The notes under the pieces were generated by a model. That model saw only the letters and a list, made by a program, of their open reading frames with translations, was not told the DNA's origin and did no database searches. From IMG/VR virus record IMGVR_UViG_3300009431_000002, positions 137,922-201,921 of that record: a stretch of 64,000 nt of DNA; one strand, given 5' to 3'. This document shows positions 12,267-60,001 of the stretch, one piece after another (within the stretch, counting starts at the first letter, position 1; every line of letters starts with the position of its first letter). The translations under genes and the position numbers were made by a program. Source of the stretch: a virus. Lineage: Duplodnaviria > Caudoviricetes.

Positions 12267-12281
12267 CGACACAGTGTCGTC
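12265..12281. repeat. Dispersed palindrome copy 1 (GACGACAC-A-GTGTCGTC)
   Basis: Perfect 8-bp arms with 1-nt centre; core CGACACWGTGTCG at 12267-12279. Confidence 0.85.
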
Positions 12282-12287
12282 GACGCC

Positions 12288-12311
12288 GAGTGGGGGCCGC
12301 CCCACTCTTTT
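12288..12311 (+). terminator. Intrinsic terminator GAGTGGGG-GCCG-CCCCACTC-TTTT
   Basis: 8-bp perfect stem, 4-nt loop, T-tract, at a convergent junction. Confidence 0.8.
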
Positions 12312-12320
12312 AGATCGGGA

Positions 12321-17207: not shown

Positions 17208-17239
17208 GGAGACTCCTGTGAATGAGGCGGTCCAGTGGA

Positions 17240-17269
17240 ATCGTAGGCCCCTGCGCGCACGCGAGTCAA
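17240..17269 (-). promoter_or_regulatory. sigma70-type promoter TTGACT-N18-TACGAT for the portal operon
   Basis: -35 at 17264-17269 (5/6), -10 at 17240-17245 (4/6), 32 nt upstream of ATG 17207. Confidence 0.7.
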
Positions 17270-17299
17270 GTGCAACGTCTCCCGGGAAGCCGGCATAAG
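17269..17299 (+). promoter_or_regulatory. Putative phage-sigma promoter AGTGCAA-N16-GGCATAAG
   Basis: Same motif as 10919-10950; heads the 17-kb replication operon; no credible sigma70 promoter seen on this strand. Confidence 0.62.
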
Positions 17300-17304
17300 A
17301 AAAG

Positions 17305-17318
17305 CAGATTGTAATCTG
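17305..17318. promoter_or_regulatory. Operator-like inverted repeat CAGATT-GT-AATCTG
   Basis: Perfect 6-bp AT-rich arms just downstream of the putative promoter. Confidence 0.45.
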
Positions 17319-17346
17319 AAACCCTGCTCCGAGGAGGATGCCTATC

Positions 17347-18122: not shown

Positions 18123-19504
18123 TCCAGTTCCACAGGCTCGACCGAGACAAAGCGTACCGGGAATCCATGCTCTGGGTGCCCAAGTACCTCGTGCCCGTGG
18201 AGACCCTGGAGGCCTCGCTGACCTACTGGTTCACCGAGACCGACGACGAGGGCAACTCCTTCGTCGCCAAGCTGGAGTGCTGGGCGGAAGAGGCTCGGCA
18301 CTTCGTGCTGCCGCGGGAGTTCCCGCAGGAAGAGGTCCCCTGCGAGGTCGTCGACCTCTCTCCACGCACCGAGCGCGTCACGTTCAACGACGACATCGCT
18401 CCCCGCGACGACGTACAGGTCGAGGCCATGGCGGCGATGCGCGGAGCCCAGACAGGCATCCTCAACCTCGGCTGCGGCCGGGGCAAGACCGTCGTCGCTC
18501 TGGAGCGCATCGCCCGCGGCGGCGGACCCGGGCTCGTCGTGGTCAACAACACCGGCATCCAGGCGCAGTGGCGCAAGGAGGCACGCGCCCGGCTCCGACT
18601 CCCGGCGGCCGACATCGGCATGGTCGGCGGGGACAGCCCCAAACGCAACGAGCTGCTCGAGTGGATGAAGCCGCTGGTCCTCGTGACCGTCCAGACCCTG
18701 TGGCGTCGCATCGTCGAGGGCCGCGTCCCTGAGACCGTCCGTCGGCGGTTCACGACGGTGGCGTTCGACGAGGCCCACCACATGAGCGCGCCGAAGTTCA
18801 ACATCGCCAGCGGCTTCTTCACCGGCGACCGCTTCGGCCTGACGGCCACGGCTCAGCGCACCGACGGCAACGAGAGGTTCTACCTCTACCACCTGGGGCA
18901 GGTCCTCTACCGGAACATGGAGGTGGACGTACCGCCCATCTGCTACTTCGCCCACACGGGCATCGCGCCGACCGTCGCAGAGCGGAACAGGTTCTTCGTC
19001 AACGACATGGTGAACATCGGCCGCGTCCGTGAGTGGCAGGCCAAGAACGCGCGACGCAACACCATGATCGCCAGGCTGGCGAAAGACGCGGTGGGCGGCG
19101 GCAACAAGGTGATCGCCCTCACCCACAACAAGAAGGATCACATCCCGCGGCTGAAGAAGAAGCTGCCGGAGTCTGGGGAGGTGACCGGGAACGTCAAGGG
19201 CGAGGCGCGACTGGTGAATCTGCACGGGAACGACGTGGTCGTCGGGACGGTGCAGGCTGCACAGGAGGCGCTGGACAAGCCGGAGCTGAACGTCGGCATC
19301 TGGTGCACCACCTTCCCCAACGAGAACGAGTTTCAGCAGGGGACCGGCCGTCTGGCTCGCCAGTACCCCGGGAAGGACGTGGCCAAGGCCATCTTCCTGG
19401 TGGACGACGTCCCCATCTGCCACGACCACGCCCGCAAGCTGGAGCGATACGCCCGCAAGCGGGGATACCGAACCGAACACTTCAAGCTGGAGGACATCGC
19501 ATGA
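18119..19504 (+). CDS. Superfamily 2 DNA helicase (UvsW/XPB-like), 461 aa
   Basis: Walker A LGCGRGKT, DEAH box, motif III GLTAT, motif VI QGTGRLAR. Confidence 0.9.
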   Translation: MIQFHRLDRDKAYRESMLWVPKYLVPVETLEASLTYWFTETDDEGNSFVAKLECWAEEARHFVLPREFPQEEVPCEVVDLSPRTERVTFNDDIAPRDDVQVEAMAAMRGAQTGILNLGCGRGKTVVALERIARGGGPGLVVVNNTGIQAQWRKEARARLRLPAADIGMVGGDSPKRNELLEWMKPLVLVTVQTLWRRIVEGRVPETVRRRFTTVAFDEAHHMSAPKFNIASGFFTGDRFGLTATAQRTDGNERFYLYHLGQVLYRNMEVDVPPICYFAHTGIAPTVAERNRFFVNDMVNIGRVREWQAKNARRNTMIARLAKDAVGGGNKVIALTHNKKDHIPRLKKKLPESGEVTGNVKGEARLVNLHGNDVVVGTVQAAQEALDKPELNVGIWCTTFPNENEFQQGTGRLARQYPGKDVAKAIFLVDDVPICHDHARKLERYARKRGYRTEHFKLEDIA

Positions 19505-20821: not shown

Positions 20822-20823
20822 AT

Positions 20824-21674: not shown

Positions 21675-21698
21675 CGGTGACTGCACCGCGGAGGCGCC

Positions 21699-25262: not shown

Positions 25263-25271
25263 CCACTACGG

Positions 25272-25299: not shown

Positions 25300-25310
25300 G
25301 TGGAGCCTCA

Positions 25311-27577: not shown

Positions 27578-28110
27578 CAGGCCATCCCAAGCTACGGCCT
27601 GGGTTCCTGCGGTTGATGGAGCGCTTCCTCATGCACCCGCGCGACCCGTCGAAGCCATCCCCAGCCGACATCATCCACGCGAACCCCGAGGAGCTGGCGC
27701 GGGAGCTGATCCGCCTCCAGCACACCGACGCGATGTACGCGACACTGTGTCGTTTGCAGCGTGACCACCCGCAGATCACGGACCAGCACATCCTGTGTGC
27801 CGCGCTGCTCTCGCGGGAGGAGATCCTCGAGCTGCTGCACGCTGAGGTCCGCGACCGGCCACCCGAGCCCATCGTGGTGGGGGACGTCCCCTTCTTCCCG
27901 ATCAGCTCCGAGCGCGTCCCGAAAACGGAGGAGGCACTGCTGGAGGGCATGGCCGACCTCAAGCCGGCGCTCAACAAGATCATCGCCACCGCCAGCGGCT
28001 CGAGGCCAATCCCCGATGGCGAGGTCACCTGGGAGCGTCTCGGCGAAGGACTCCGCGACTGGTTCAGTAGGCACGCCACGCCCGTGGAGCGAGACGATGA
28101 CGAAGAGTGA
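27574..28110 (+). CDS. Hypothetical protein, 178 aa
   Basis: GTGA overlap at 27574; carries palindrome copy 2 in its coding sequence. Confidence 0.65.
   Translation: MTGHPKLRPGFLRLMERFLMHPRDPSKPSPADIIHANPEELARELIRLQHTDAMYATLCRLQRDHPQITDQHILCAALLSREEILELLHAEVRDRPPEPIVVGDVPFFPISSERVPKTEEALLEGMADLKPALNKIIATASGSRPIPDGEVTWERLGEGLRDWFSRHATPVERDDDEE
27740..27752. repeat. Dispersed palindrome copy 2 (CGACACTGTGTCG)
   Basis: Exact core inside a CDS, forcing rare codons ACA-CTG-TGT-CGT. Confidence 0.85.
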
Positions 28111-34020: not shown

Positions 34021-34034
34021 ACCCCTCGGACTAC

Positions 34035-34541: not shown

Positions 34542-34542
34542 C

Positions 34543-39000: not shown

Positions 39001-41995
39001 CGTTGTGGTCCGCCGACCACATCCGGGCGTCCGGCTGGTACATGGCGCCGGTGAACTCGTGCGCCCCGCTCTGCAGCTGGGTCTGCGGGTTCTCGCCGGC
39101 GGCGACGATGGCGGCCGCGCTCTCCAGCCACGGATAGTCCATGGACACGAAGTTGGTGTTCCCGGTCTCCTTGCTGAGAACGAACAGCCCCGGGTCCCAC
39201 CCGAGTTGGACCAGCATGCCGGCGCCGCCGCGCATCATCGGGCCGGTCTTGGTCTGGTCCAGCGACCGCGTCAGGGCCTGCATGTACATGGCCCAGTAAC
39301 CACGGTAGCTGGCACCGGCGTTGTCCGGGTCGCCGTAGTGGCGGTTGAACAGGCCGTAGGCCGGCGAGTACGAGGTGAATCGCATCGCCGGGCCTCTCGT
39401 CGCGTCCGGGATGCGGTCGATGGACTTGAAGGAGGGGTCGTTGAGGTTGGCCCACAGGCCCGAGCCGACGCCACGCCAGCCGATGCCGACCACGCCCTGC
39501 AGGTTGTCGAGGTCGTAGCCGTCCTCGTAGAAGAACTTGCCGATGCGCCGGATGCCCGCCGACGCCGCGATGGGCGTGAGGTCGAATGTCTCGTTGGACA
39601 GCTCCGTGGCCACGTACAGGTGGGCCTTCGCCTCTCCTGTTGCGTCCGCGGCGAAGTTGGGCTTGCTGCCGTCGAGGTTCGCCAGTCGCAGCCGCCCGGC
39701 GCCAGCGCCCATCTCACCCTGCACCACGTGGTACCAGCCCGCGTTCTCCTGGCTGTGGGTGATGGCGATGTACCCGCCCGGCCGGTACTCGCCGGTGTCG
39801 TCGTCGTACCCGAACCGGACGTTGCCGGAGTCCGTGGGGTCGAACGGCACGCGGATCCAGTCGTCGCCACCGTCGAAGGTGATGTCGAAGTACCGGAGGA
39901 TCGAGGCGTCGCCCGAGTGCTGCGGCGCCTCACGGAGGGCGTTGAGGGCGTGGCCCGGGTCGTAGTCCCCGTAGGGGTTCATGTCCTCGAAGTACACGCC
40001 GCCCCACCGAGCGGTCGGGTTGACCTGCTCGATGACGTGCCAGACCATGGCCGCGTTCCAGTCCTCGAACCGGCCCTCGATGATCGCGTACTCCTCCACG
40101 CTCCCGACGGGGATCTGCCCCGGGGCGGAGGTCTCCTCCGAGACGATGACGCTCTCGGAGTCCAGGTAGTCGATGATCTTGAACGTGGCGTTGGGGTCGA
40201 GCCCGGCCGGCAGTGCGCCGCGGACCAGGATGTACCGCCCCACGTCGTCCAGCGTGAACGCCTCACCCGTGGCGAAGAAGATGTTGCCGGCGAGGAACTG
40301 CGCCGGGACCCCAGGCGTGCCGGTGCGCAGCACCGTCCCCGGCTTCGGGGTGCGGGTGCTGTTGACCTGCCACCGCGGCGGCCGGTCGTCCACCTCCACC
40401 ATGAACCCGCCGCCGGCGCCGCGGCCCTGACCGTCGTAGGCGCCCTGCAGGGTGGTGCGGCGCCACTGCAGCTCCTGGGTGACGTCGGGCTCGCCGGCGT
40501 ACGTCGAGCCGCCGGCGATGCTGTGGGCGAAGGGCGCCGACGTGAAGTCGTCGGTGCTGTCGACCAGCGGCCCCTTCATCTTGCGGATGACCTCCTGCAC
40601 CAGGTCGTCCACCTCGTCGAAGGAGCGGATGTTCATGCGCAGGAAGTGGTCCACCGGCATGTTCGCCAGCGTCACGGCCGCGCCGCAGACCACCTTGAAC
40701 AGGGTACCGGCGGGGATGGCCGGCTCGAAGGTGAGCCAGATGCCGTCGGCGAACAGGCCACCCGAGCTGACCTCGACGCTCCCGAAGGCCCCGGAGGTGT
40801 CGGGGTTCAGCTCTGCGCGGTCTCCCGGTGTCCAGGCGCCGAGCTCGAGGTGCTCCTCGTCGATGACGCGCTCGACCCGGTAGGTGCCGTCGTGGTTGAA
40901 GGGGTCGTTGATCGTCGAGCCCGACACGACGGCCTTGTCGCCGTCGACCACGCCGTCGGTGATGAAGGTCGCGCCGGCCACGCGGACCACGCAGCGGTTC
41001 TGGATCTCGTCGATGGGGACGGCCGCGGTCTTGATGCAGTCCACGCCCAGGACGTTCGAGCCGTCGTGCGTGGTCCAGTCGGCCACGTCGATCAGCGGGT
41101 TGGTCGGCGGGCTGGTCTCGTCCACGAAGTCGGGCGTCGGCGCCACACGCTGGCCGCGATGGACACCTGCGACCCGGACGGCCTCGCCGCCCTCGATGAT
41201 CTCGACCAGGTCGTTGCGCATCACGGCGAAGAACTGGCCGATCTCCGTGAGGGTCGACAGCCGGTCGACGTACCCGTTGCCGACGTAGATGCGCTCCTCC
41301 AGCAGGGGCCACGGCGACAGGTCGCTGAGGTCGAGCTGGACGATGTTGCCGGCGCCGTCGGTCACGATGCGCGCCGCCCAGTTCGGGTCGGTCTCGTCGA
41401 CGTCGACCTCCATGCCGCGGGCCAGCTCCCGGGTCACGGTCTGGTACAGGCTCTCCGTGTTGGCGGACAGCAGCATGAGGCCGCGGTTCTGCGCGTCCGC
41501 CGCCATCTGGTCGCCGGTGGCGATGAACCCAGTGCCCAAGGGGTTGTTGTCCACGCGGCCCCTGGGCGGGGTCCAGGCGACGTCCCCGGACTCTACGCGG
41601 GAGATGGGGTTCGGCCACCGCGGGAAGCCGAGGTAGAAGCTGGCGTCGACGCCGGCGCTGACCGGCACGATGGTGACCGATGCCCCGGCACCGATGGTCG
41701 ACGAGTAGATGGCGACGAAGCCCTCCTCCTCCTTGGCCGTCCCCGTCACACCGAGCGCGGCGTCGATGTCCGCCACGATGGTGGTGATGTCCAGCGCAGA
41801 CAGCACCACTTCCACCGGGGCGTCAACGTCGGGGTCGCCGTCGATCAGCACAGCCAGCCGTGCGGGAAGGGTCAGCCCCGGGAACTCGCGGGAGGTGTCG
41901 TCGCGGCGGATCTGCCCACGGATGTAGGGCTGGGACAGGACGTCGATGGGGGTGTTCCCCATCAAGAACGGGCGTCGGAGGAAGCGAAGGCTCAT
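36065..41995 (-). CDS. Giant tail fibre/baseplate-associated protein, 1976 aa
   Basis: Acidic beta-rich modular protein in tail operon; G-x-Y-x-I beta modules; Gly/Ser linker. Confidence 0.6.
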   Translation of the reverse strand: MSLRFLRRPFLMGNTPIDVLSQPYIRGQIRRDDTSREFPGLTLPARLAVLIDGDPDVDAPVEVVLSALDITTIVADIDAALGVTGTAKEEEGFVAIYSSTIGAGASVTIVPVSAGVDASFYLGFPRWPNPISRVESGDVAWTPPRGRVDNNPLGTGFIATGDQMAADAQNRGLMLLSANTESLYQTVTRELARGMEVDVDETDPNWAARIVTDGAGNIVQLDLSDLSPWPLLEERIYVGNGYVDRLSTLTEIGQFFAVMRNDLVEIIEGGEAVRVAGVHRGQRVAPTPDFVDETSPPTNPLIDVADWTTHDGSNVLGVDCIKTAAVPIDEIQNRCVVRVAGATFITDGVVDGDKAVVSGSTINDPFNHDGTYRVERVIDEEHLELGAWTPGDRAELNPDTSGAFGSVEVSSGGLFADGIWLTFEPAIPAGTLFKVVCGAAVTLANMPVDHFLRMNIRSFDEVDDLVQEVIRKMKGPLVDSTDDFTSAPFAHSIAGGSTYAGEPDVTQELQWRRTTLQGAYDGQGRGAGGGFMVEVDDRPPRWQVNSTRTPKPGTVLRTGTPGVPAQFLAGNIFFATGEAFTLDDVGRYILVRGALPAGLDPNATFKIIDYLDSESVIVSEETSAPGQIPVGSVEEYAIIEGRFEDWNAAMVWHVIEQVNPTARWGGVYFEDMNPYGDYDPGHALNALREAPQHSGDASILRYFDITFDGGDDWIRVPFDPTDSGNVRFGYDDDTGEYRPGGYIAITHSQENAGWYHVVQGEMGAGAGRLRLANLDGSKPNFAADATGEAKAHLYVATELSNETFDLTPIAASAGIRRIGKFFYEDGYDLDNLQGVVGIGWRGVGSGLWANLNDPSFKSIDRIPDATRGPAMRFTSYSPAYGLFNRHYGDPDNAGASYRGYWAMYMQALTRSLDQTKTGPMMRGGAGMLVQLGWDPGLFVLSKETGNTNFVSMDYPWLESAAAIVAAGENPQTQLQSGAHEFTGAMYQPDARMWSADHNDIHRGGIYSEQAGAFMHSLHPMMLPEDRYYEAAPVPLGAITRGQARLGWPGQIQPWGLTGDIQITGLLPPDPTKSRAIRTSGTVQFVVSDATIRLWEPFDRFIGCQVEISGSADDDGIYVIINAVPVDQAAMPDYTLELELLGTNTIAAPLTWADGDPAAPSLAVLGARWHYGYVDVAGFTLYGTETKVPYIVGKDFGSGGPGGGSGGGSSAGGPQPAPIELLRDRAPHEYPVIGARMNDTTTLLRGGDLINLTSPEPAWPAYGKFYHAPHSLAGMIDQPYGHGDSDIGEMITDPTSDWLAEEPFLNSGWCGAYGRMIAPAPPNFGPFLDDALSSRADNAMNFWNSEWVWTRNLIKNQTPSGTFYAGTGPGVGAALGDPWAMYFEYEHDPGVALYVPRNMYRALEKGQRLLRNHHYNVVVRFEARFETILGNIDQTEVEVIARLVSDNGTVHQMASVMVPVNAAAASKYEVHLNLGERLREANMMTFEEENDWRVEIGIGKITADAPLLIAQRGRLHLWQISVDQDHQVLVDQGSRVVEGTVSAQGFRALSPIRDYMVMGPGDAQLYLPPGYAAEPSIKATSDYVGLDLPIDPPAHFMLNCNYEKEDGEQHDHRAWCRVADFIDFRRGIDSASIRFLMKWTDPYVHYLSRTGGDPLGDEDTDGYAPPSRVGFIVPLRVPHGARIIGADLQMSFQPQFYDDGEDHKAKLTIWGDRRPFVGPGAEDDLVGCRIRIVRLHLFPDADEAVRRIGNEFSNDPSGGAFENGVHASVRCNFEDPWDAGLRHQDVGFYEVLFGSYMVLPEEPTYLPVNSAIRTNFVGHYGGALWNLPIGAEMFARRRYFFLTGQGGDDPDPEVVPFRHSKPEVWVADTRQFAYYAIIDAWGRGDVDTPHGDVLGKNGDAPDPAVDGPWLGSGMYSPYWMSLDRRKPEIPPTAMASWTKISQADEDKETYLRILRRSAAMKFRGLRMTYEWDRLRPG

Positions 41996-42654
41996 CGGAA
42001 CATGACCTCCCAGACGGCCTCGAGGCCGTAGCCTTCAACCTTCACGAGCGGGTCGAAGGACTTGTAGGCCAACGGCGACCTCGACGCGGACGTGGCGAAG
42101 TCCGTGGGGCACGGGATCGCGTTGTCGGCGTTGGGGTCGCCGTCGGTGAACAGCCCGGCCTCGCTGATGACAGCGTTGGCACCGAGGCTGATCTCGTTGG
42201 AGGCGTACTCGCGGATGAACTGGACCGAGGTGCGCGGCGTGCCGTCGGCGTCTGCGGTGTAGGTCGGGGGGACCTGGAACTGCGCCAGGAACTCCCCGAC
42301 ACGGAACTCGATGGGGCTCACCAAGCCTGACACCTCGGCGACCTCGGACTGGTTGCCGTTGCCCAAGCCGATGTAGAGGATGCGGTCGTCCCGCATCGGC
42401 GTCCGCGACGGGTTCTGCAGCGCCAGCGCCACCAGCTCCGCCAGGTACTCCCGGCCCGTGAGCGTCCAGATGTTGTTCCCGTCACGCTCCTCGACGACAC
42501 GGCCGTCGGGGTCCTTCAACCGCAGCGTGAGCCGCCCCTCGATGCTGGGCCCATCCTTGATCGGCGACACAGTGTCGTCGCCACCACCAGGTCCGCCGAC
42601 CACGCGGAGCCGCAGGCGGTCCCGCACACGCACGATGTCCTTCAGGAACTTCAT
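41992..42654 (-). CDS. Tail-fibre attachment/baseplate protein, 220 aa
   Basis: NIWTLTGREYLA...YIGLG...ISEAGLF...AYKSF pattern typical of small proteins preceding myovirus fibres. Confidence 0.55.
   Translation of the reverse strand: MKFLKDIVRVRDRLRLRVVGGPGGGDDTVSPIKDGPSIEGRLTLRLKDPDGRVVEERDGNNIWTLTGREYLAELVALALQNPSRTPMRDDRILYIGLGNGNQSEVAEVSGLVSPIEFRVGEFLAQFQVPPTYTADADGTPRTSVQFIREYASNEISLGANAVISEAGLFTDGDPNADNAIPCPTDFATSASRSPLAYKSFDPLVKVEGYGLEAVWEVMFR
42565..42577. repeat. Dispersed palindrome copy 3 (CGACACAGTGTCG)
   Basis: Exact core inside a CDS (sense codons GAC ACT GTG TCG). Confidence 0.85.
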
Positions 42655-45600
42655 CCAATGTCCTCCCGGAGCACTCGACCAGTCACCGCACCGAGAGCTC
42701 CGATGTCACGAGTCAACCAGAAGGCGTGGGGCCCGTCCAGTGACGCTACCACGGCAACGGTTCCGCCTGAACCGAATACTTCAAACAGGTCGCCCCTCTG
42801 AACACCGAGCACTTCGAGGTCCACAGCCGCCGGCACGTCAACATGGTCGTTCACCACATTGAAGTCCGGCGAGTCCCTCAGGATGCGCGCCTGGACGTTG
42901 GCGGGCTGGAACTGGAGGTTGGCCCGCACCTCCAACCAGTGGGGCCCGAGGTTCAGGATCTCGTAGATGCCAGAGTTGACGCCGTCCAGCACGTCCACGA
43001 AGTCGCCAGGCAGTACGGGCACCGTATCGAACCCGAGGATGCTGGACTCGTTGAACTGGTAGTAGTCGGTGTGCAGCACCTCGAGGTTGTTGACCGCGTA
43101 GACCTCCACCCGAGGGCGGTAGATGGTGAACCGGACCGTGCTCTCCGGGCACACCAAGGCCTCGCGGTCCCACGCATGCGGGCCGCCGGGGGTGTCAAAC
43201 ACGATCTCGCACGAGTCGCCCGCGGAGTTCTGCGGCGGCGTCGGGCTGACGTAGACCTCCGAGACGTTAGGGAAGCCGTCGAGGATCTCGTACTCGCCGG
43301 TGTTCGGGCCTTCGAGGATGCGAAGCGTCGCGCTGAGCTGCGTCCTCCGAAGGTCTGTCCGCTCCGCCCGGACCGCAGTCTCCTCGTCGATGACGACGGT
43401 GGGCGACCCCGCGTTGCAGGAGCACGTCATCCCCGTGATGGGCCCATCCAAGTACCGGCGGACGATCCTCCAGGCACCGAGGTTGCCGTCGGGCGGGGGT
43501 GGGTAGACCTTCACCTCGCGCCAGTACTGCCCGGGGGCTGGCTCCTGCATCTCCAGGATGATGAACCTGCGCGGTGTTCCCACAAATGGGAACGTCAGCA
43601 GCTCGTCGTCGGTGGTCACGCCGTCCGGGTACAGGCTGTCCGTGTCCAGCTCAACCATGGATGTCGCGGCCGTGCCCATCGCGGTTCCGCCCGCGTCCAG
43701 CGGGTTCTCCACGATGCGGCCGATCACGAAGTTCAGGTCCTCACCGTCCTGGATGCCGGCCATCGTCGGTCCTGGGAGGTGTGGGGTGCGGACCTGGATG
43801 TCGTCGAGTTCCAACGCGCCGCTGGCGACGCCGATGATGGCGTACCAGCCCTGGTTCGGGCCGGCGTCAGGCAGGTAGAGCACGTCCCCCACCTTCACCA
43901 TGTCGCCGCCGGTGTAGGTGTCCAAGGCCTCCGAGAAGAACCTGCTCGGCACCTGCGTCGTGACCAGTCCCGTGAAGCCGCCACGTGCCGACGTGGCCTG
44001 CACCGACCCCGCCTGCATCGCCAGGTCGTCGCCGCTGAACAGCACCCGGCACGACAGCGCCCCGACGTCCTCAAGGTGCAGGGGCAGCGACCGTCCACTC
44101 CAGTCGTCCATCATCGGCGTGGCCGCGATGCTCAGCGAGGGGCTGTCGTAGAAGTTGGGGTGGTGGACGAAGCCCAGCGTGTCCGTGACCTCCACCACAT
44201 CGGCGAGGTACAGGCGCAACACGGCGTCCAACTCGGTCCACGCCGGCTTGATGGCGTTGGCGAACTCGACGGCGACTGCGAAGTCCTCGGGGCCCACGGC
44301 CTGCGCGTTGGCGCGCATCCGCCACGTGTGGAACTTCCGCAGCTCGGCCTGCTGGCCCTGCGACTGTAGGCCCATCCACCACGTCGGGTCCGTGAGGTAG
44401 TCCTGCACGTCGACGCCGCGGGAGAGCGGGGTGAAGCGGTCGACGATGTCGCCGACGGCGTACTGGACACCCGTGTCCGGGTTCTCGGCGATGCCCGTCA
44501 GCTCGTCGGCCCCCACCGTGGGTGGAGCCGGGTAGAGGTAGGTCCGGACGATGCCCAGTGGCTCGTCGGTGTGGGCGTCGACGTCCTCCACGAGCACCCG
44601 ACCGAACTCTGGTGTGCCGTCGGGCTTGAGGGAGTACACGTCGTTGATGTCGACGATCACGCCCCGCGCCACCGCCACCGGCAGCCCGAGGAGGATGTGG
44701 GCGCCGACTGCGATGTTGTACAGGGACGGGCCGTTGGCGAACGCGTACAGCAGCCCCTCGACCGCGTGCTTGTAGGTGACCGACCGGGTTTCGCGCTCCG
44801 AGAGCTGCTCCACCGTCAAGGCGACTGCGACGCCGAAGTTGCTCTCGACGACGGGCGCGTTGTCGATGAACGTGGTCTCGGCCCACAACCTCGACGGCGC
44901 GGGCTCGTTGGCGGTCCACAGGTCGTCGTCGAACCGGACGAACCGGCCGGCTCCGCGTCGTGTGGCGGTGAACTCGACGTTGACCTCGTCGCTGAACACG
45001 GTGTCCCCGGTGGCCTCGAACTTCAGCAGCACGGCCGTGTTGCTCTGGACCTGCTGCACCACCCAGGTGCCCGCGTTGGGCCCATGCTCAACCTCGACCT
45101 CGTCCCCAGAGCGCACGCGCTTGCGCAGGAACTCGGCCGTCGGCGACTCCAGCGTGCTCGTCGACGCCTGGAACTCGCCGTCGCGGCACAGGAACCCCGA
45201 CTCGTCGTCGACCGTGTAGTCCCGGTTCTCCAGCAGGGTGACGGGAAGCTGGTCGAGCTCGGTGCGCTCACCGTCCCGGGTGAGCAGGATGAGCTCTGTG
45301 CCCGTGTCCTGGACTGTCGGCGGCCGGACATACTCACGCAGGCAGGGGATGGAGATCACGCGCGGGTCCACGGCGATCTGGCTGTTCCGCACCACCGCGG
45401 TGACCGAGATGTTCACGGAGAAGGGGCCGATGTCGATGTCGGCGGTGTGGCGGATGGGGATGTTGCCGTACAGCTCGTTGAACGACCCCGACGTGAGCGT
45501 GTCCGACGCCTCCTGCCCCTCGCCATCCAGCAGCAACGTGCCGAACACGTCGGCCGCCACGCCCGTCATCCCCAGCGCCTCGGCGAGGGTCACCTTCTCG

Positions 45601-47420
45601 GTGACGCTCGCGTCGGCCGGCTCCCCGCCCACAATGGGGTCCAGCGTGGGCTCAAACCCCAAGCGGTTGCGGTCGACACCCACGACCGTGCCGTAGAAGT
45701 CGGCGACGGCCCCGTTGTCCACTCGGCGGACCACGCCCTCGAGGCGGTCTCCTGCAGAGACGCCGAGCTCCTCGAAGTCGATCTCCTCGGACACGAGCGT
45801 TGCCGGCACACGCCACGTCAGCCCCGACAGCTTCGACGGCGCCATGGCGCGGTCCAGCACGGCGAGACCCACCTCACCGGGGCCGGTCGGCGTGGCCGGG
45901 AGCTCGTCCGTCTCGTAGGCGTCCAACATGGTGTAGGCGCGGTCGTCGACCACGATGACGCGGCCTGCGATGGCGCCGACGGCGTCGATGCGGAAGCTCA
46001 CATCGTCCATCGGGAAGGGGCCGACGAAGGGGCGGTCGACGATGTACCCGGTCCGGGGGTCGTTGAGGTCCGCGATGACGTACCGGCCTGCGTTGTCGCC
46101 GTCGAGGATCACGATGGCCCGGCCAGCGGCGCTCTCGAAGGTCTTGCTCGCCCCGACTACGATCTCGGTGGCCGACTTCACCGTCGCCTTGCCTGTCATC
46201 GGTGCGGGGGCCAGCGCGGGGAGGTCCGACGTGTCCGCGGGCACTTGGAGCAGGTCGGTGAAGGCGGACTCACCCTCCGGGACCGTGACCTCCACGGTGT
46301 TGTAGACCGTGAACTGCAGCCCAGAGTTGCTCGTCGTGAGGCTACGCGCCAGACGCAAGCTGCCATCGTCGGGCAGGCCGTCCGCGAGCCCGATGCCTGT
46401 GATCTCGTAGAAGCCGCGGTCGGCCCCCTCAGAGATGCGGAGCACGTCGCCGGCCTCGAAGCCCGACAGCGCCGCGAAGTTGGTGCCTGACGACTGGACG
46501 ATGTCGAAGCCGGCGTTGGTCACCAGGTCGTTGGACGACGCGATCACGTCATCTGCGGGGGCGGGCAGCGGCGTCGCCCGGGACAGGGTGTATCCCGACA
46601 GCCCGCGGGCGACGCCGCGGATGGTGTAGGTGCCCCGGTTGCCCGGCACGCCGTTGCTGCTGACCACCTCGACCTCGACGCCTGCCGCCGTCGGGCGCGC
46701 GACGCCCTCGATGACGCGAATCTCGCTGGCGGAGATGACGATGGCGCGGATGGTCTCCGAGAACGGACCAGTCGCGGCGTCCAGGCCCTCCTGCTCGTTG
46801 CCCTGGATGAAGTACGTCTGCGCGGGCGTCAGGTCGATCCGCGGCTCGTAGGCCAGCCATCGACGGGCAACCTGGTCCTGGATGTGCTGGATGCTCTTGT
46901 TGTGGTCCGTCTCCAGGAGCCGTTGGAGCTCGGAGGCCGCGACCTGCATGTAGGCCGACCAGATGATCGGCAGGACATCCGACTGCTGGAAGTGCCGAGG
47001 CCAGAAGTCCGAGATGGTCCGGAGCAGGAAGCGGGCGTCGGGCGTGACATCCGTGCACGTCGGCATGAGTGCCGCGGACACCAGAACCGAGGTCTCCGCG
47101 GGCACGCTGTCGAACTGACCATCGTTGACGACCACCTGCAGGCGGTACATCCCCACGATGTCCGGCGTGAACGCGACCGCGCCGCCATCGTCGTCCAGGT
47201 CCTCGAAGGAGTCGTTGTTGGCCTCGCTGCCGATGGGAACCTCGAGGAAGGTCCACGCGTAGGTGAGGTCGGCCCCCTCGGGGTCGTAGCTGCTGCGCGC
47301 ATCGAACTTGACGATGGAGCCGATGACGGCGGAGTGCTGGATGGGCGACACCATCGCAACAGGCGCCTGGTTGCCCGCTTGGAGGCCGTAGCTGAAGAAG
47401 CTGAAGGTCGTGTTCGCCAT
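42651..47420 (-). CDS. Large baseplate wedge-like protein with N-terminal PKD/Ig domain, 1589 aa
   Basis: FDARSSYDPEGADLTYAW...GMYRLQVVVNDG PKD signature; repeated GD-x-L-x-I...G-x-N-x-G-x-Y modules. Confidence 0.6.
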   Translation of the reverse strand: MANTTFSFFSYGLQAGNQAPVAMVSPIQHSAVIGSIVKFDARSSYDPEGADLTYAWTFLEVPIGSEANNDSFEDLDDDGGAVAFTPDIVGMYRLQVVVNDGQFDSVPAETSVLVSAALMPTCTDVTPDARFLLRTISDFWPRHFQQSDVLPIIWSAYMQVAASELQRLLETDHNKSIQHIQDQVARRWLAYEPRIDLTPAQTYFIQGNEQEGLDAATGPFSETIRAIVISASEIRVIEGVARPTAAGVEVEVVSSNGVPGNRGTYTIRGVARGLSGYTLSRATPLPAPADDVIASSNDLVTNAGFDIVQSSGTNFAALSGFEAGDVLRISEGADRGFYEITGIGLADGLPDDGSLRLARSLTTSNSGLQFTVYNTVEVTVPEGESAFTDLLQVPADTSDLPALAPAPMTGKATVKSATEIVVGASKTFESAAGRAIVILDGDNAGRYVIADLNDPRTGYIVDRPFVGPFPMDDVSFRIDAVGAIAGRVIVVDDRAYTMLDAYETDELPATPTGPGEVGLAVLDRAMAPSKLSGLTWRVPATLVSEEIDFEELGVSAGDRLEGVVRRVDNGAVADFYGTVVGVDRNRLGFEPTLDPIVGGEPADASVTEKVTLAEALGMTGVAADVFGTLLLDGEGQEASDTLTSGSFNELYGNIPIRHTADIDIGPFSVNISVTAVVRNSQIAVDPRVISIPCLREYVRPPTVQDTGTELILLTRDGERTELDQLPVTLLENRDYTVDDESGFLCRDGEFQASTSTLESPTAEFLRKRVRSGDEVEVEHGPNAGTWVVQQVQSNTAVLLKFEATGDTVFSDEVNVEFTATRRGAGRFVRFDDDLWTANEPAPSRLWAETTFIDNAPVVESNFGVAVALTVEQLSERETRSVTYKHAVEGLLYAFANGPSLYNIAVGAHILLGLPVAVARGVIVDINDVYSLKPDGTPEFGRVLVEDVDAHTDEPLGIVRTYLYPAPPTVGADELTGIAENPDTGVQYAVGDIVDRFTPLSRGVDVQDYLTDPTWWMGLQSQGQQAELRKFHTWRMRANAQAVGPEDFAVAVEFANAIKPAWTELDAVLRLYLADVVEVTDTLGFVHHPNFYDSPSLSIAATPMMDDWSGRSLPLHLEDVGALSCRVLFSGDDLAMQAGSVQATSARGGFTGLVTTQVPSRFFSEALDTYTGGDMVKVGDVLYLPDAGPNQGWYAIIGVASGALELDDIQVRTPHLPGPTMAGIQDGEDLNFVIGRIVENPLDAGGTAMGTAATSMVELDTDSLYPDGVTTDDELLTFPFVGTPRRFIILEMQEPAPGQYWREVKVYPPPPDGNLGAWRIVRRYLDGPITGMTCSCNAGSPTVVIDEETAVRAERTDLRRTQLSATLRILEGPNTGEYEILDGFPNVSEVYVSPTPPQNSAGDSCEIVFDTPGGPHAWDREALVCPESTVRFTIYRPRVEVYAVNNLEVLHTDYYQFNESSILGFDTVPVLPGDFVDVLDGVNSGIYEILNLGPHWLEVRANLQFQPANVQARILRDSPDFNVVNDHVDVPAAVDLEVLGVQRGDLFEVFGSGGTVAVVASLDGPHAFWLTRDIGALGAVTGRVLREDIG

Positions 47421-47428
47421 CCGGGCTC

Positions 47429-49723
47429 CTACGGGTCGGTATCCGCTACCTCGACGACCAGGTTGAGGTGCCCGTCGAAGGCGTGCTCATCCATCTCCTC
47501 CTGCGACAGGGAGCGGCGCACGGAGAGATCATACCCCCGGCTCGTTCCGATCCGTACAGCCTTCCAGGACGACGTGCACTGCCTCGTCGTGTCGCTCGAC
47601 CCGACCACCACGGATGGCACGAGGGTCTCCGCGCCGTTGGGGAGGTCGATGTCGGACCACTGCACGTCGATTATCGGGGTGTCGGCGTTGTCCACGTACA
47701 GTCGGACGTAGCTCCCGGGCCGCCTCTCCAGCCTGTAGGTGTGGGCCTCGGTCCAGTCCACAGCGGCCGAGATCGCCTCGCCCTCCTCGGTCTGCAGCAG
47801 GACAGCCTCGAGGGTGCTGGCCGCGTCCGCCCCCTGGAGGTACACGTACTTCGCGCCTGCGGCGGTCTGCGTGGCCATCAGCCGCACGAGGTCGGACATG
47901 TCGTCGATGGAGAACCCGCCGGCGATGGGCTCCTCGGTCGGATTCGGTGAGCCGACGGTGTCGCTCCACGCCGAGATGGAGAAGATGGCCTCGACGAAGA
48001 CCCCGTGCTCTGGCTGGAGATCCGGCAGCGACCGGATGTAGCGGCGCCACCCCGCCGACCCTGCTGTGCCGTACCCGGTATCCGTGAAGACGGCCGCGTC
48101 CCCGACCATAGCCTCCGACCCCGGCCCCGTGGCGTCCAGCGTCCACGCCGCTATAGGCGGCAACGCTCCGGAGCTCGCCTCGTACCGGACGAGGTCGCAG
48201 CTGTACTTGAGGCTCTCGATGCGGAAGGTCCCATAGGTCCGCTGGGTCAGCCCTGGCCGGATGTGGCCGGCGCGTACATGCGCCAGCGCGCTGGCGGGTA
48301 GGTCCCCGCGCCCGACGCTCGCGGCGGGGACCAGGTCGTCGTCGACGTAGACGTCCACCACGCCAGCCTCACCGTCACTGATGAACAGCAGCTCTCGGGA
48401 TGTCGTCCAGTCGCCGGTGGCTGGCTCGTACCCCGCCTCCTGCTCGGGGGAGACACCGTTGTCCAGCCGGAGGCCGAAGTACGGCGTTGCGAAGTCCGTG
48501 ATCAGGCCGAGGTGTGCCTGGCGCTCTCCGTCGCAGACCTCGATGGCGGCGCCAGCGTGGTTCGTGAGCGACGGTGTCAGCGCCGCGTTGATCCGGGCGC
48601 GCAGGTACCACCCCGGGCTCGGCAGCAGCCCTGGCTCCTCACGCTCGATGTAGCACTCCTCCAGCCCCTGCGTGCTGTCCTGCGCGATGACGAGCTGCGT
48701 GGTCGACGGCGTGAAGGTCCCCTCGATCTCGGGCGTCGCCCACGGCGGGTCGGCTTCGGCCACGTCGACGTTCATGGGCAGCTCGACGAGGTCGTCGGGG
48801 GTCAGTGCGATCTCGGCCCCGTGCCACGACACGCCAGCGGTCACCGCGGACATGGCGAGGGGCAGGATCCGCACGGAGTTGTGGGCCGCCTGGTTGCCCA
48901 CTGGCCCGTCGACTCCGAAGATGGCGAACGCGCGGGTGCTCGTGGCGGGCTCGTGGCCACCGAAGACCGCGTTGCCGACGAAGGTGTCGATGGACGAGAA
49001 GGGGATGGCTGCCAGTCGCTGGACGTCACCAGACGCCTCGTCTCGGACGTACACCTCGACCTGGAGGACGGCCGGCGCCTCGTTCCATCGCACCAAGTAG
49101 GTCGTGTCGAGCGACCAGTCGTAGGCGACGTCCGCCAAGGTCTGTCGCGCGCCGGCGCCGATGGCGGGGCCGGTGATGACGACTCGTCGGGTGCCGGCGT
49201 CGTCGCACAGCATCAGGAAGACGCCGCGGTTGCGCAGGCCCGACACCGACCCGAGCATCACCCCGGTGAACCGCGGGTCCTCGAAGTATGGGACGGCGGC
49301 TGTGGTGTACGCGACGACCTCGGGCCGGAACTCGACGTGGAACCCGTCGCCGTCCTCCAACACCTCGGACATGACGTAGTGGCTCTTGAGCGGGCCCGCG
49401 GAGGGCATCGACATGTCGAGGAAGCCGGCCGACGCATCGGCGTCCGCGGGGTCTACGTGAGACGGACCGGCCCAGTCGTTGAAGCTCTCCAGCCTGACCT
49501 CACGGGATGCGTCCGTCTCCAGGAAGCTCGGCGTCTCTTCGGGCAGCAAGGAGGTGTTGGCGGGCTCGTACAGGACAGACCCGTAGGCCAACCCGATCTG
49601 CAGGGAGCTGAGGTCGACGCGCGTGTTCTCGTCGCGTACACCGAACCGGATGGGCCTGTCCACCTCGACGCCTGCGGAGCCTGGGGCGGGGCTTCTGTTG
49701 ACGACGAGCGGTTCAACAGCCAC
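47429..49723 (-). CDS. Virion protein with N-terminal Ig-like domain and lectin-like beta-sandwiches, 764 aa
   Basis: PLVVNRSPAPGSAGV..DRPIRF Ig start; SD AGGAGG. Confidence 0.6.
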   Translation of the reverse strand: MAVEPLVVNRSPAPGSAGVEVDRPIRFGVRDENTRVDLSSLQIGLAYGSVLYEPANTSLLPEETPSFLETDASREVRLESFNDWAGPSHVDPADADASAGFLDMSMPSAGPLKSHYVMSEVLEDGDGFHVEFRPEVVAYTTAAVPYFEDPRFTGVMLGSVSGLRNRGVFLMLCDDAGTRRVVITGPAIGAGARQTLADVAYDWSLDTTYLVRWNEAPAVLQVEVYVRDEASGDVQRLAAIPFSSIDTFVGNAVFGGHEPATSTRAFAIFGVDGPVGNQAAHNSVRILPLAMSAVTAGVSWHGAEIALTPDDLVELPMNVDVAEADPPWATPEIEGTFTPSTTQLVIAQDSTQGLEECYIEREEPGLLPSPGWYLRARINAALTPSLTNHAGAAIEVCDGERQAHLGLITDFATPYFGLRLDNGVSPEQEAGYEPATGDWTTSRELLFISDGEAGVVDVYVDDDLVPAASVGRGDLPASALAHVRAGHIRPGLTQRTYGTFRIESLKYSCDLVRYEASSGALPPIAAWTLDATGPGSEAMVGDAAVFTDTGYGTAGSAGWRRYIRSLPDLQPEHGVFVEAIFSISAWSDTVGSPNPTEEPIAGGFSIDDMSDLVRLMATQTAAGAKYVYLQGADAASTLEAVLLQTEEGEAISAAVDWTEAHTYRLERRPGSYVRLYVDNADTPIIDVQWSDIDLPNGAETLVPSVVVGSSDTTRQCTSSWKAVRIGTSRGYDLSVRRSLSQEEMDEHAFDGHLNLVVEVADTDP

Positions 49724-49752
49724 TTGTACTGGCCCTCCTGGCGTTATACGGT
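49724..49752 (+). promoter_or_regulatory. sigma70-type leaderless promoter TTGTAC-N17-TACGGT
   Basis: -10 ends exactly 6 nt before GTG 49759; no SD upstream of that gene. Confidence 0.5.
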
Positions 49753-49758
49753 TCCTAC

Positions 49759-56320: not shown

Positions 56321-56991
56321 GCCGCCTCCTTGGACTGCGCCGCCAGGTTGGCCAACGCCTCCTCTCCCGCCATGGACACCAGCCGGATCCTGCCCTCAAC
56401 CGACAGGGTCTGCGGATCGAAGTTGACCGACAGCAGCGATGCCGACAGCAGCCGCTCGGGCAACGTCAAGCCGCGCGTGGTCGCCTGCACACGCGTGATC
56501 TGCTCTTCTGCACGGGCCACCGCAGCAGCGAAGGCCCCGACGTGCAGGTTCTTGTCGTGCCGGCCCGACGAGCTCTTCTGCAGCGCCATCAGGTTCCCGC
56601 CGTGCTCCGCATCGTAGATGTCGGAGCCGGGCGTCGTCAGCAGGACCTTCACGAACGTCTGGACCAGCTTGGGCAGCCCACCGACCAGCCTCCCCGTCCT
56701 GCTGAACCGGAACACCAGCTGGCTCTTCTCCGTGGCGGTGAACGCATCGCTGAGCACCATGACCTGCTTGAGCGGGGACTCCGCCAGCCTGGGTGGGACC
56801 TGCGCCACCAGCCGCGTACGCGAGAGGACCAGGAACTCCTCGGCCTCCACGCCGTTGAGCAGTACGGTGGAGACGTTGCGGAAGTCGTTCCCGTAGATGT
56901 CGTAGACCGGAGGGTAGAAGCCCGACACGAGCCCGATCTTCCGGACGGGGACGACGTCCTGGTACTGGACGTACTGGATGTCCAGGCTCAT
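56317..56991 (-). CDS. Baseplate gp25/gpW-like protein with N-terminal IPT/TIG domain, 224 aa
   Basis: KLVQTFVKVLLTTPGSDIYDAEHGGNL gp25-like signature. Confidence 0.68.
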   Translation of the reverse strand: MSLDIQYVQYQDVVPVRKIGLVSGFYPPVYDIYGNDFRNVSTVLLNGVEAEEFLVLSRTRLVAQVPPRLAESPLKQVMVLSDAFTATEKSQLVFRFSRTGRLVGGLPKLVQTFVKVLLTTPGSDIYDAEHGGNLMALQKSSSGRHDKNLHVGAFAAAVARAEEQITRVQATTRGLTLPERLLSASLLSVNFDPQTLSVEGRIRLVSMAGEEALANLAAQSKEAA

Positions 56992-57413
56992 AGCGGCATG
57001 TCCTCCGACGAGACGGTTGCGTACACGCCGTCGTCCTTCTCGACGTCGTTCGGGTCGAAGTCCCTGGCGGCCTGGATGAGCCCCGGCACCGCGGGCTCGC
57101 CACCCGCCTCCTCCCGGCCCATCATCAGTTCCTGGAGCTCCTCCAGGCGTTGCTTCCGCCCCTTGCGCCCCGCGGCTCGCTCAAGCTCCGCTTGCGCCGA
57201 GGCGCTCGCCTCAGACTCGATCTGTGCTGTCACATCGATCTGGGTGGAGTCCAGCCCAAAAATGGCCTCGTCGATGAAGTTGGCCATGGTGAGCGACGCG
57301 ATGGTCTCGGCCGTGGCCTGGCTCGTGATGGCCGAGATGACCCGCGCGAGGCCGATCCGCAACGCGGTCTCCTGGGCCTTGGCGTCCTCTGTGGTGTAGA
57401 GGAAGGTCGTCAC
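56988..57413 (-). CDS. Hypothetical tail/baseplate protein, 141 aa
   Basis: Coupled overlaps on both sides. Confidence 0.65.
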   Translation of the reverse strand: MTTFLYTTEDAKAQETALRIGLARVISAITSQATAETIASLTMANFIDEAIFGLDSTQIDVTAQIESEASASAQAELERAAGRKGRKQRLEELQELMMGREEAGGEPAVPGLIQAARDFDPNDVEKDDGVYATVSSEDMPL

Positions 57414-60001
57414 GGGCTCTCCCTGTGCGTCGAGATGGCCGCCACGTCTCCGGTGACAGACGACCTCCTCCCAGCGTCCTCGGCCTGCGCATCACTGGAC
57501 TTGGGCGGTGCCATATCCTGCGCTACCGCAGTCAGCGCCGCTTCGAGGTTACCAGATTGAGAAGCCGTGGCGGACGACAAGTCCAGGAAGTCCTGAACGC
57601 GTCCGTTCACAAGGAACTCTGCGGCACGGTCGAAGCCGTGCTCCTCCAACGAGGCGAGGAGGCTGTCCACGGCGCGCTGGGAGTCCACATCCACGGTCGG
57701 CGAGAACAGAGCCAGGGAGTCCTCGTAGGTGCGGCCGCTGGTCGGCCTGGCCATCTCCTCGGACACCAACCCCGCGTCGATGTCGGTAGCCTGCGGCGGG
57801 GAGGCCGTGAGCAGGGAGAGCAGGTCCACCAGCGGGACGAGTGCCTTCCGCATGGCGCCCGCGCTGATGGCCCCACGTCCGCTGGCGGCCGCCACCCGCT
57901 CGCGCAGTGCGCGCAGCACGCGGATGTTGGGCACGCGGGACTGTGCTTGGTCCGACAGCAGCCGCTGCAACGACGTGCCGGTGTCGTAGAACGACTTGTA
58001 GCTGGCGTCAGTGATGACGAATGGGGTGTCCCCCATGTCCAGCCGCACGGGCGGGGTCACCTGCAGGTCGGTGCCCGTCGGCGCCACCACGACCTCCAGA
58101 TCGACCTGGGCCTCGCCATGCAGCTGGAGTCGGTCGCCGGCCGCGATCCCGAAGGTCGTCAGGTCCAGCGGTGTGTCGTCCCCAACTCGGCGCACCACCT
58201 CCACCAGCGCCGTCGTAGCATGGGTATCGCCAGCGACCAGGCCCAACTCAGCCAGCCCCACACTGTCCAAGATCGTGAGGACCGTGCCCTCAACCTCGTC
58301 CAGCACAGTCAGTACGAGGTGACCGTCGGCGTCCAGCGATGGCGTGACCCCACCACCCTTGACGGCCTCCACAACGGTGCTGGGGTCTGTCTCCAACGTC
58401 GCCGTCTCGGTCAGGCCGAGGAGCGTGACCGCCTGGTTGGGCTCCGCCAACGCCCCGACGCCTGTGGGCGCAGTCCAGGAGATCTGGATGGTCGTGCTGA
58501 CCTGGTCGATGGTGATCGAAACACCCTGCCCCTCGGCCACGGAGCTGACGACCAGCTTGTCGCCGTCCGAGGAGACGGCCGCGACGGTCTCAGCGCCGTC
58601 CTGCTCCAGCGGCTGCATGGCCGCGACGAGCGCGGCCATGTTGCTGGCCCAGACGCCGGCGCCCATCGTCGCCGTGAGGATGCGGAGCTGCCCCGGTACG
58701 TCCTGCAGGATGACCTGGATGCCGACGCCGTCGCCGACCGGGAAGGTGATGTCGTCGGAGGTCACCGTGGCCGGCGCGTCCCCATCGAAGGTCGACGGGA
58801 GCGTGAACGCCGACGGGCAGGTCAGCAGCAGGCGGTCGCCGAACGCCTCGGCCGTCACCGGCGTCCCCGCGGCGTTGATCGCGTCGACGATGTCGGCGAC
58901 ATCCGCCGCGCCAGCCGGAAGCTGGATGGGGTAGGTCACACCGCCCGTCTCGATGTACAAGTAGACGCCGGCCGGAATCGTCAACCCGATCACGTCGACG
59001 GTGCCCAGCACGGCGTACAGCCCCGCACCAGGGATGTCGGCCGAGAATGAAGCGTCGCCAACCTCGTACAGGAGCTGCGTCCCGGCAGGCAGAAGTCGAG
59101 CCACGGGCGACGACCCCGTCACCACGAGGTCGCTACCGTCCTCCAGGGGGAGCAGGACGTAGTCCGTGCCCTCGGGGATGGCCGTCAGCGGATCCTGCGA
59201 CAGGTCCTTGGACCGGATCTTCGGGTCGGCCGGGCCGCGCGCCTGCTGAACGGCGCTCAGTGCCGCCTTGCCGGCCAGCAGATTCAACGCCACGGAGGAC
59301 GCAGTCCGCGCCGCCTCCTCATCCGACGCCGTGTCGTAGTAGTCGACTGCGGCGTCCACCCCCGACTTCGTCCGGTCCACGATGCCCGAGGACACCCGCC
59401 GGCGCAGGTCCTCGGCGGTCACCTCTGTCACGGTCCTGCGCGCCCACAGAATCCGCTGCTGGAGCTGCAGGAAGCGCCGGATGAAGTCGTCGAAGTGGGT
59501 CACGGCATCCGAGAGGGCCTCGGCCCCCACGCGCGCGGCGCCCGCCCCGACAGCGGGCTGCACGTTGGGCTGCAGCCCAGACGCCACGAAGTCGTCCAGC
59601 GCCTTCCCATAGGAGCCCAGGAGGGTGGATGTCGCGCGGCTGCTGCCCGAGGTCTGCATCACATCCGCGGCCGTGCCGAGCGCCGACGACGCCGCGGCCA
59701 ACGACACAGTGTCGTTTGGCGCCACGGACGGGCGGGTGGAGTCCAGCAGGGCGAGGATGGTCTCCTCGAGGTCGGTGATGGTCTCCTTCAGCAGGGCGCG
59801 GACGCCGTTGTTGGCGTAGCCGGCGAGGACGTAGAAGGTCGGCGGCCGCAGGAGCAGCAGGGTGGCCGCGTCCTCCTGCAGCTTCGTGAACGCCTCGGTC
59901 TTGGCGTCGACACCAGCCGTCTGGTGCCCCGCCACCGACTGACGAGAGAGGACCTTGCCCGACGCGGTCTGCAGCCGGTTGCTGTCATACCCTCGCGCCA
60001 C
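57410..60001 (-). CDS. Tail-associated structural protein, 863 aa
   Basis: Helical termini, beta-rich middle sharing the ITSD.ITFP segment with the 2069-aa protein. Confidence 0.6.
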   Translation of the reverse strand: MARGYDSNRLQTASGKVLSRQSVAGHQTAGVDAKTEAFTKLQEDAATLLLLRPPTFYVLAGYANNGVRALLKETITDLEETILALLDSTRPSVAPNDTVSLAAASSALGTAADVMQTSGSSRATSTLLGSYGKALDDFVASGLQPNVQPAVGAGAARVGAEALSDAVTHFDDFIRRFLQLQQRILWARRTVTEVTAEDLRRRVSSGIVDRTKSGVDAAVDYYDTASDEEAARTASSVALNLLAGKAALSAVQQARGPADPKIRSKDLSQDPLTAIPEGTDYVLLPLEDGSDLVVTGSSPVARLLPAGTQLLYEVGDASFSADIPGAGLYAVLGTVDVIGLTIPAGVYLYIETGGVTYPIQLPAGAADVADIVDAINAAGTPVTAEAFGDRLLLTCPSAFTLPSTFDGDAPATVTSDDITFPVGDGVGIQVILQDVPGQLRILTATMGAGVWASNMAALVAAMQPLEQDGAETVAAVSSDGDKLVVSSVAEGQGVSITIDQVSTTIQISWTAPTGVGALAEPNQAVTLLGLTETATLETDPSTVVEAVKGGGVTPSLDADGHLVLTVLDEVEGTVLTILDSVGLAELGLVAGDTHATTALVEVVRRVGDDTPLDLTTFGIAAGDRLQLHGEAQVDLEVVVAPTGTDLQVTPPVRLDMGDTPFVITDASYKSFYDTGTSLQRLLSDQAQSRVPNIRVLRALRERVAAASGRGAISAGAMRKALVPLVDLLSLLTASPPQATDIDAGLVSEEMARPTSGRTYEDSLALFSPTVDVDSQRAVDSLLASLEEHGFDRAAEFLVNGRVQDFLDLSSATASQSGNLEAALTAVAQDMAPPKSSDAQAEDAGRRSSVTGDVAAISTHRESP
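59702..59714. repeat. Dispersed palindrome copy 4 (AACGACAC-A-GTGTCGTT)
   Basis: Exact core inside a CDS; arms extend to 8 bp and further with one bulge. Confidence 0.85.

Follow-up and report, generated by a model that had tools for sequence, protein, structure and literature searches.

The known roles of ParB-type clamps gated by cytidine triphosphate (CTP) lie in the partition of chromosomes and plasmids, in nucleoid occlusion and in the silencing of plasmid genes. Here we describe an array of a 13-bp palindrome, CGACAC-W-GTGTCG, spread over the genome of a large, uncultured marine phage, together with g138, a phage-encoded protein of the ParB family that is the best candidate for its binder. 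The palindrome was noticed in a 64,000-nucleotide stretch (the window) that spans bases 137922-201921 of an IMG/VR phage record. The record is 201,921 bp long, has 67% G+C and is classed by CheckV as complete; the analysis covered all of it. Among the described systems, chromosomal ParB (Spo0J) and Noc spread from their sites as CTP-gated clamps. The parS sites of ParB cluster near the origin; Noc is a ParB paralogue that works without ParA and has its sites dispersed over the chromosome. Dispersed palindromes of 12-13 bp also organize a chromosome region in the MatP-matS and SlmA-SBS (SlmA-binding site) systems, and in both the stoperators of mycobacteriophage L5 and the dispersed P1 C1 operators, one phage-encoded protein finds its exact site repeated many times over the phage genome. 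The inverted repeats IR1-4 of N15 are dispersed as well, as Ravin and Lane reportedly found in 1999. N15 SopB uses these several separate sites instead of one centromere (PMC7205306).

The plasmid protein KorB has twelve 13-bp palindromic OB sites, each with one central base, across the roughly 60-kb RK2, at positions that are kept in R751 (PMC13768133), and it is a sliding CTP clamp that acts from distal sites (PMC13768133, PMC11790492). Like OB (TTTAGC-S-GCTAAA), the phage site consists of two 6-bp arms around a single central base, forms a perfect palindrome of 13 bp and is scattered over its replicon, and like KorB, g138 belongs to the ParB family, with KorB structures among its fold matches. 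In contrast to RK2 and R751, the replicon here belongs to a phage, measures 202 kb and encodes no detectable ParA/IncC, and the sites lie mostly in genes rather than near promoters and are evenly spaced. Nor is a KorA/TrbA-like locking partner known for g138, in which the catalytic Q and E are replaced, and its similarity to KorB (3e-6) is weaker than that to chromosomal ParB (1e-18). The best sequence and fold matches of g138 are in fact chromosomal ParB/Spo0J and Noc, whose sites, parS and the Noc-binding sites (NBS), are likewise palindromic and near-invariant. Unlike the 16-bp parS, the phage sites measure 13-15 bp, have a central A:T pair and are distributed evenly and genome-wide, with no ParA detected. 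N15 resembles the present case in being a phage genome on which a ParB-family protein has several separate inverted-repeat sites, but it is temperate, persists as a plasmid prophage and has SopA and four sites, as opposed to 15 sites and no detected ParA or integrase here. MatP-matS and SlmA-SBS differ in protein family and sequence, and their sites are confined to or excluded from one macrodomain. The L5 stoperators and P1 C1 operators differ in being asymmetric, orientation-dependent and located between genes, where they serve prophage repression by non-ParB repressors.

The window contains four exact copies of CGACAC-W-GTGTCG, against 0.01 expected from dinucleotide shuffles. They stand at 12267, 27740, 42565 and 59702, with gaps of 15473, 14825 and 17137 bp, just as the original prediction had it. 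The whole genome contains 15 exact copies (0.03 expected from a Markov-3 estimate), at genome positions 15183, 39099, 52738, 58973, 79646, 87639, 103984, 115662, 121362, 129467, 137517, 150188, 165661, 180486 and 197623; the further copies and the non-random spacing that had been anticipated beyond the window were both found. In the window, the first copy (12267..12279, genome 150188, central A) occupies an intergenic convergent spacer and carries no strand; it abuts the TGA stop of the plus-strand gene 11997-12266 and has the extended form GA-core-TCGA. The second (27740..27752, genome 165661, central T) lies in a plus-strand gene at about 27619-28110, placed by the frame profile of G+C at third codon positions (GC3), and is translated as A-T-L-C-R. 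The third (42565..42577, genome 180486) and the fourth (59702..59714, genome 197623), both with a central A, encode D-T-V-S with the rare Thr codon ACT in minus-strand genes: 41992..42654, encoding 220 amino acids that match phrog_5417 of unknown function, and 57410..60001, encoding 863 amino acids with no family match.

All 15 copies are exact over 13 bp, 14 of them extend to R...Y, many reach TCGA...TCGA, and some form perfect palindromes of up to 25 bp. The four copies in the window all fit R-core-T-Y, and no C/G-centred copy exists in the window or in the genome; both points had been made from the window alone. When the centre is left free and one mismatch is tolerated, the window yields just one additional, unrelated near-match. 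Across the genome, 15 exact, 1 one-mismatch and 3 two-mismatch copies contrast with 0, 0.25 and 4.1 in Markov-3 simulated genomes. This all-or-none spectrum, with almost no degenerate halo, fits a stringent parS-like site, and the palindrome is perfect and near-invariant among its copies, as parS/OB-type sites are. The 17-mer GACGACACWGTGTCGTC has no IMG/VR match outside this genome. One marine DNA sequencing run contains 12% of the sequence words, as contigs; no RNA run is listed.

The palindromes are selected at the DNA level. Local GC3 and open frames place ten copies in coding sequence and five between genes. Permutation of synonymous codons within genes yields 0.12 in-gene copies, with a maximum of 2 in 1000 trials, against 8 observed, which bears out the proposed enrichment over a codon-preserving shuffle. 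The coding copies occur on both strands and in three frames, and encode D-T-V-S (7 of 10), T-(L/Q)-C-R (2 of 10) or R-H-C-V (1 of 10). In the called genes, which cover 83% of the genome, D-T-V-S peptides number 7 against 0.9 expected, and in all seven the Thr codon is ACA or ACT, codons that make up 8% of Thr codons. The earlier description of one intergenic copy and three within genes on either strand, in different frames and with rare codons, is correct for the window; genome-wide, seven of the ten coding copies share the D-T-V-S frame. Aligned orthologous codons show that sites were gained by substitution, not by insertion. For example, the conserved RNA polymerase peptide G-D-R-L-S is encoded here by GAC CGG CTC TCC, with no site, and in the related lineages G001 and G004 by GAC AGA CTG TCG, which uses the rarest Arg codon and constitutes their version of the site.

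Spacing along the genome is not periodic but far more even than chance. The gaps range from 5,700 to 23,916 bp with a mean of 13.0 kb and a coefficient of variation (CV) of 0.41; in 10,000 random placements of 15 points, a CV so low had P = 2-4e-4 and a minimum gap so large had P of about 5e-4. The near-regular interval of 15-17 kb in the original prediction therefore holds inside the window only; genome-wide, with gaps of 5.7-23.9 kb, the sites are even without being periodic. A merged contig of the G001 lineage with 11 sites behaves similarly (CV 0.45, P 0.005; minimum gap 4.75 kb, P 0.001). The sites are spread over the whole genome, the nearest one to g138 is 0.8 kb away, and the clustering near parB or the origin that is typical of a classical centromere was not seen; by analogy, this genome-wide spread matches the pattern of KorB and Noc, not that of a centromere. 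At genome 98804, inside the 16.3-kb gap 87639-103984, one copy has its arms separated by 3 nt (CGACAC-GTA-GTGTCG, about 0.03 expected); it may be a decayed or alternative site.

To judge conservation, we turned to relatives found through the RNA polymerase gene. None of the 80 related loci recovered contains CGACAC-W-GTGTCG. The closest contigs, of the G001 lineage (67% amino-acid identity), instead carry the symmetric variant CGACAG-W-CTGTCG, with 8 copies in a 74-kb contig (0.007 expected) and 11 in a 104-kb merge with an overlapping contig. In a second species, G004/G027, about 84% identical to G001, the variant occurs at eight orthologous positions; the cores of these eight sites are identical at 103 of 104 bases, as compared with 82% in the ±60-bp flanks, and the sole core difference is a flip of the central A:T pair. 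One more G027 site has a G001 counterpart with six mismatches, which indicates site turnover. The third lineage, G031, is represented by a contig of 49 kb in synteny with positions 121-170 kb of this genome, and has CGGACAG-N-CTGTCCG three times. The half-sites form a series: CGACAC|GTGTCG here, CGACAG|CTGTCG in G001/G004 and GGACAG|CTGTCC in G031. Conservation of the motif itself, as first envisaged, accordingly failed in the nearest relatives, and symmetric variants took its place, which is stronger evidence than plain conservation.

Site positions tell a similar story. The convergent spacer that holds window site 12267 has the local variant in G001 (22567), G027 (19993) and G031 (27813), and a second spacer keeps a site despite the version switch between this genome (87639) and the G001 lineage. 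Most other positions differ among the lineages; the spacing is even all the same. Seven scanned distant relatives (G005, G006, G007, G009, G012, G014 and G016) have no comparably enriched palindrome, CGACNNNNNGTCG occurs at background level only in 20 relatives, and a GenBank phage BLAST with two window stretches returned no relative. The array is real, strongly selected, lineage-specific and co-evolving with the phage.

Two unrelated small phage lineages, G028/G029 and G030, each contain the same 15-mer core twice, inside longer palindromes. In G028 the form is AAAAA-core-TTTTT, with the two copies 16.7 kb apart (L215:7700-7735, L216:4440-4475); in G030 it is AAATA-core-TATTT, with the copies 62 bp apart directly upstream of Mu-type terS/terL (L219:10075-10165). 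These occurrences may reflect coincidence or a shared host factor. In the distant relative G012, GGCCATGGCC and GCACCC-NNN-GGGTGC repeats cluster locally at 85056-87184 (L290), spaced about 180 bp apart; this is a tandem array, not a dispersed system.

The best candidate for the binder lies outside the window. Gene g138 (genome 127655-128674, plus strand), which diverges from terL (PF05876), lies upstream of the window at a distance of about 9-10 kb, and its orthologues adjoin terL in every motif-bearing lineage (G001, G004, G031). The protein combines a GLRRWLA motif, a helix-turn-helix (HTH), a Lys-rich linker and a conserved helical C-terminus. It is a member of the ParB/Noc/KorB family. 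A profile of its clade matches the solved structures of Spo0J (1e-18), Myxococcus xanthus ParB (7e-17), Noc (5e-15) and KorB (3e-6) over the N-domain and HTH. The PHROG 'ParB-like partition protein' is matched at 3.8e-16, and HTH_ParB is found in 41 of 57 aligned proteins (g138 and 56 of its profile hits). An AlphaFold2 (AF2) model built from this 57-sequence alignment reached a predicted local distance difference test score (pLDDT) of 85, replacing a three-sequence model of pLDDT 50; over residues 1-190 the score is 92-98 except for one block of 82, and all 31 significant Foldseek matches are ParB, Noc or KorB, with about 197 aligned columns that span the N-domain and the contiguous central HTH. 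The GxxRxxA arginine motif of the family is present as GLRRWLA, with G61, R63, R64 and A67 invariant in the clade. Behind the Lys-rich disordered linker, the C-terminus is helical and conserved, and ends in W-A-L-G-E.

In profile alignments the CTP-binding arginines are kept throughout the phage clade, and at the positions of Q52 and E93, the catalytic CTPase residues of M. xanthus ParB, all its members have N and L/M/I, respectively. On sequence grounds, these replacements do not exclude g138 from the family and predict a slow or non-hydrolysing clamp. In the recognition helix, this genome has DVRTVQR, G001/G004 have STRHVQR and G031 has STRHVRR; one helix residue differs per base change in the half-site. 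A profile search found no g138 orthologue in 21 more distant RNA-polymerase relatives, and searches of viral and metagenome contigs for further g138-bearing lineages returned the same three or four lineages and one 4-kb siteless fragment.

For a ParA partner, we found neither a KGGxGK[ST] motif in six frames nor a PF13614/AAA_31 match, a soft negative given that the same six-frame tool missed the divergent ParB: the six-frame Pfam search of the genome for ParB_N returned nothing, a false negative. The same search found no Phage_integrase and no Tet_JBP dioxygenase. The ParB-activated thymine dioxygenase systems of phages (PMC13229309) were set aside; their ParBs are without a DNA-binding domain, and no dioxygenase was found here. 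A separate gene at genome 70113-72177 (L099:10113-12177) matches only phrog_5931, of unknown function, and no Pfam ParB model; its neighbour encodes a multi-HTH protein with D5-like regulator matches, and no orthologue was seen in the available sister contigs.

With moderate confidence, we read the palindromes as parS/OB-type loading sites for a long-lived phage ParB clamp, g138, that would cover the whole genome. We infer that a g138 dimer binds the site by reading its two 6-bp arms through the HTH domains, closes into a nucleotide-bound clamp, and slides off from the site. The clamps would travel far and would be long-lived because both catalytic residues for CTP hydrolysis are replaced in the clade. 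M. xanthus ParB with Q52A or E93A binds CTP and closes its ring, releases DNA 7-60 times more slowly, and spreads over 175 and 125 kb, respectively, as opposed to 33 kb (bioRxiv 10.1101/2021.05.05.442810). Sites whose distances stay between about 5 and about 24 kb would then allow the clamps jointly to cover the 202-kb genome. Such a coat would probably serve the infecting phage by marking, compacting or shielding its own DNA, or else by regulating it at long range in the manner of KorB. Classical plasmid partition is not the favoured purpose, since neither ParA nor integrase was detectable.

The general idea of the original prediction, namely dispersed binding sites of the parS/Noc type under DNA-level selection and with genome-wide spread, has gained support from these data. 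Segregation, one of the functions it proposed, is weakened in its classical sense by the lack of detectable ParA or integrase, and its likening of the core to the BldD box is not needed on the ParB reading. Ejection pausing found no support, and nothing spoke for the binders it had named (the XRE protein, HU, the H1-like protein, Zn fingers or a host protein).

A more specific proposal is possible, and we offer it tentatively. The ParA-less, hydrolysis-impaired clamp might load at about 15 spaced sites and coat the genome of a probably lytic jumbo phage as a self-marking or shielding layer that sets its own DNA apart from that of the host. Such a layer might serve packaging, next to terL, or protection from host nucleases, and its site specificity might diverge quickly between sister phages, perhaps avoiding cross-talk in co-infection.

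Several observations weigh against g138 as the binder. Alone, it falls below the Pfam ParB thresholds, including that of PF02195, and the replacement of its catalytic residues could instead signify a protein that makes no use of CTP. Between lineages with motifs one base apart per half-site, its identity amounts to only 29-34%, and there is no site within 0.8 kb of its gene. In G031, 49 kb contain just three sites, of which one is G-centred. Many other genes are limited to the same lineages, among them g136, whose HTH_17 domain also varies between lineages. The link from g138 to the sites draws on family priors, on co-occurrence in three or four related lineages and on three pairs of helix and motif.

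The same g136 (genome 124054-124818), with HTH_17 at its N-terminus and 1 kb from terL, figures in an account that we consider unlikely: the sites may be targets of another, packaging-linked DNA binder, for which g136 as a possible small terminase is the candidate, and act as pac-like entry points on concatemers. Its HTH_17 match exceeds the Pfam cut-off, it occurs in the same lineages only, and its helix varies too; the two 15-mer copies in the unrelated small phage G030, just upstream of Mu-type terS/terL, would also suit a role in packaging. However, nothing in packaging demands a minimum spacing of about 5 kb, and the small-terminase label is a guess, whereas the ParB family has direct precedent for such site architecture. 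Small-terminase sites are usually single clusters of direct repeats rather than 15 dispersed perfect palindromes.

The small phages bear equally on the idea that the phage exploits a nucleoid-organizing or regulatory host protein that binds the sites, a shared core then reflecting a shared host. The 15-mer core twice in each of the unrelated G028/G029 and G030 is what one would hope to see, yet two coincidences among millions of contigs are plausible. Moreover, a symmetric motif change between sister phages calls for a matching change in the binder, something more readily achieved by a phage gene, and the matches listed by a scan of 185,579 species genomes were isolated hits in scattered genomes, none of them rich in the 15-mer. 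We regard a host binder as quite improbable.

There is similarly little probability that the sites are targets of a sequence-specific enzyme, be it a nicking or restriction-like nuclease, a recombinase, a topoisomerase or a base modifier. All-or-none exactness and symmetric switching of specificity are known from restriction-modification evolution too, but the sites are enriched rather than avoided, type II enzymes do not typically have 13-bp targets, the search for a Tet/JBP dioxygenase found none, and no candidate enzyme has a phyletic link like that of g138. Least probable are nucleic-acid hairpins or cruciforms (terminators, RNA stability elements or N4-type RNA polymerase promoters): although several copies directly follow stop codons (genome 39099, 150188), some are part of perfect palindromes as long as 25 bp, and a 5-bp stem with a 3-nt loop is reminiscent of N4 early promoters, 10 of the 15 copies lie inside genes, on both strands and in three frames, the RNA hairpins predicted at four sites are unexceptional (z -1.1 to -2.2) and have no U-tract, the C6/G8 switch would sit in the loop, so that pairing leaves its symmetry unexplained, and relatives with the same RNA polymerase are without these palindromes.

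Whole-genome marking of this sort is not known to have been described for such a phage, and the evidence points to a new deployment of a known kind of system. If g138 is confirmed as a clamp loaded at these sites, an evenly spaced, whole-genome array of loading sites on a large virus without detectable ParA would constitute a new use of ParB-type clamps. It would also provide natural, matched changes of recognition helix and palindrome over a short evolutionary distance, and the three natural pairs would allow a specificity code of the ParB family to be tested directly. The even spacing would then be a genomic read-out of the travel distance that the clamp needs.

Three further observations concern the genome and its relatives. 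A second palindrome, AGCTC-NNN-GAGCT, occurs 10 times genome-wide (0.85 expected), for example at 18460, 42123 and 114606, an enrichment far weaker than that of the main motif. The gene at genome 58236-59165, around site 58973, encodes a C-terminal domain resembling nucleoside 2-deoxyribosyltransferase (phrog_355, 3.7e-20) and may be relevant to nucleotide or DNA modification in the phage. Finally, terL is contiguous in this genome and in G031, and lies in two pieces about 1.1-1.4 kb apart in G001 (45118-48027; L105:5118-8027), G004, G005 and G007, with the G001 site 46686 just inside the second piece; the split suggests an intron, an intein or an inserted homing gene in these relatives.

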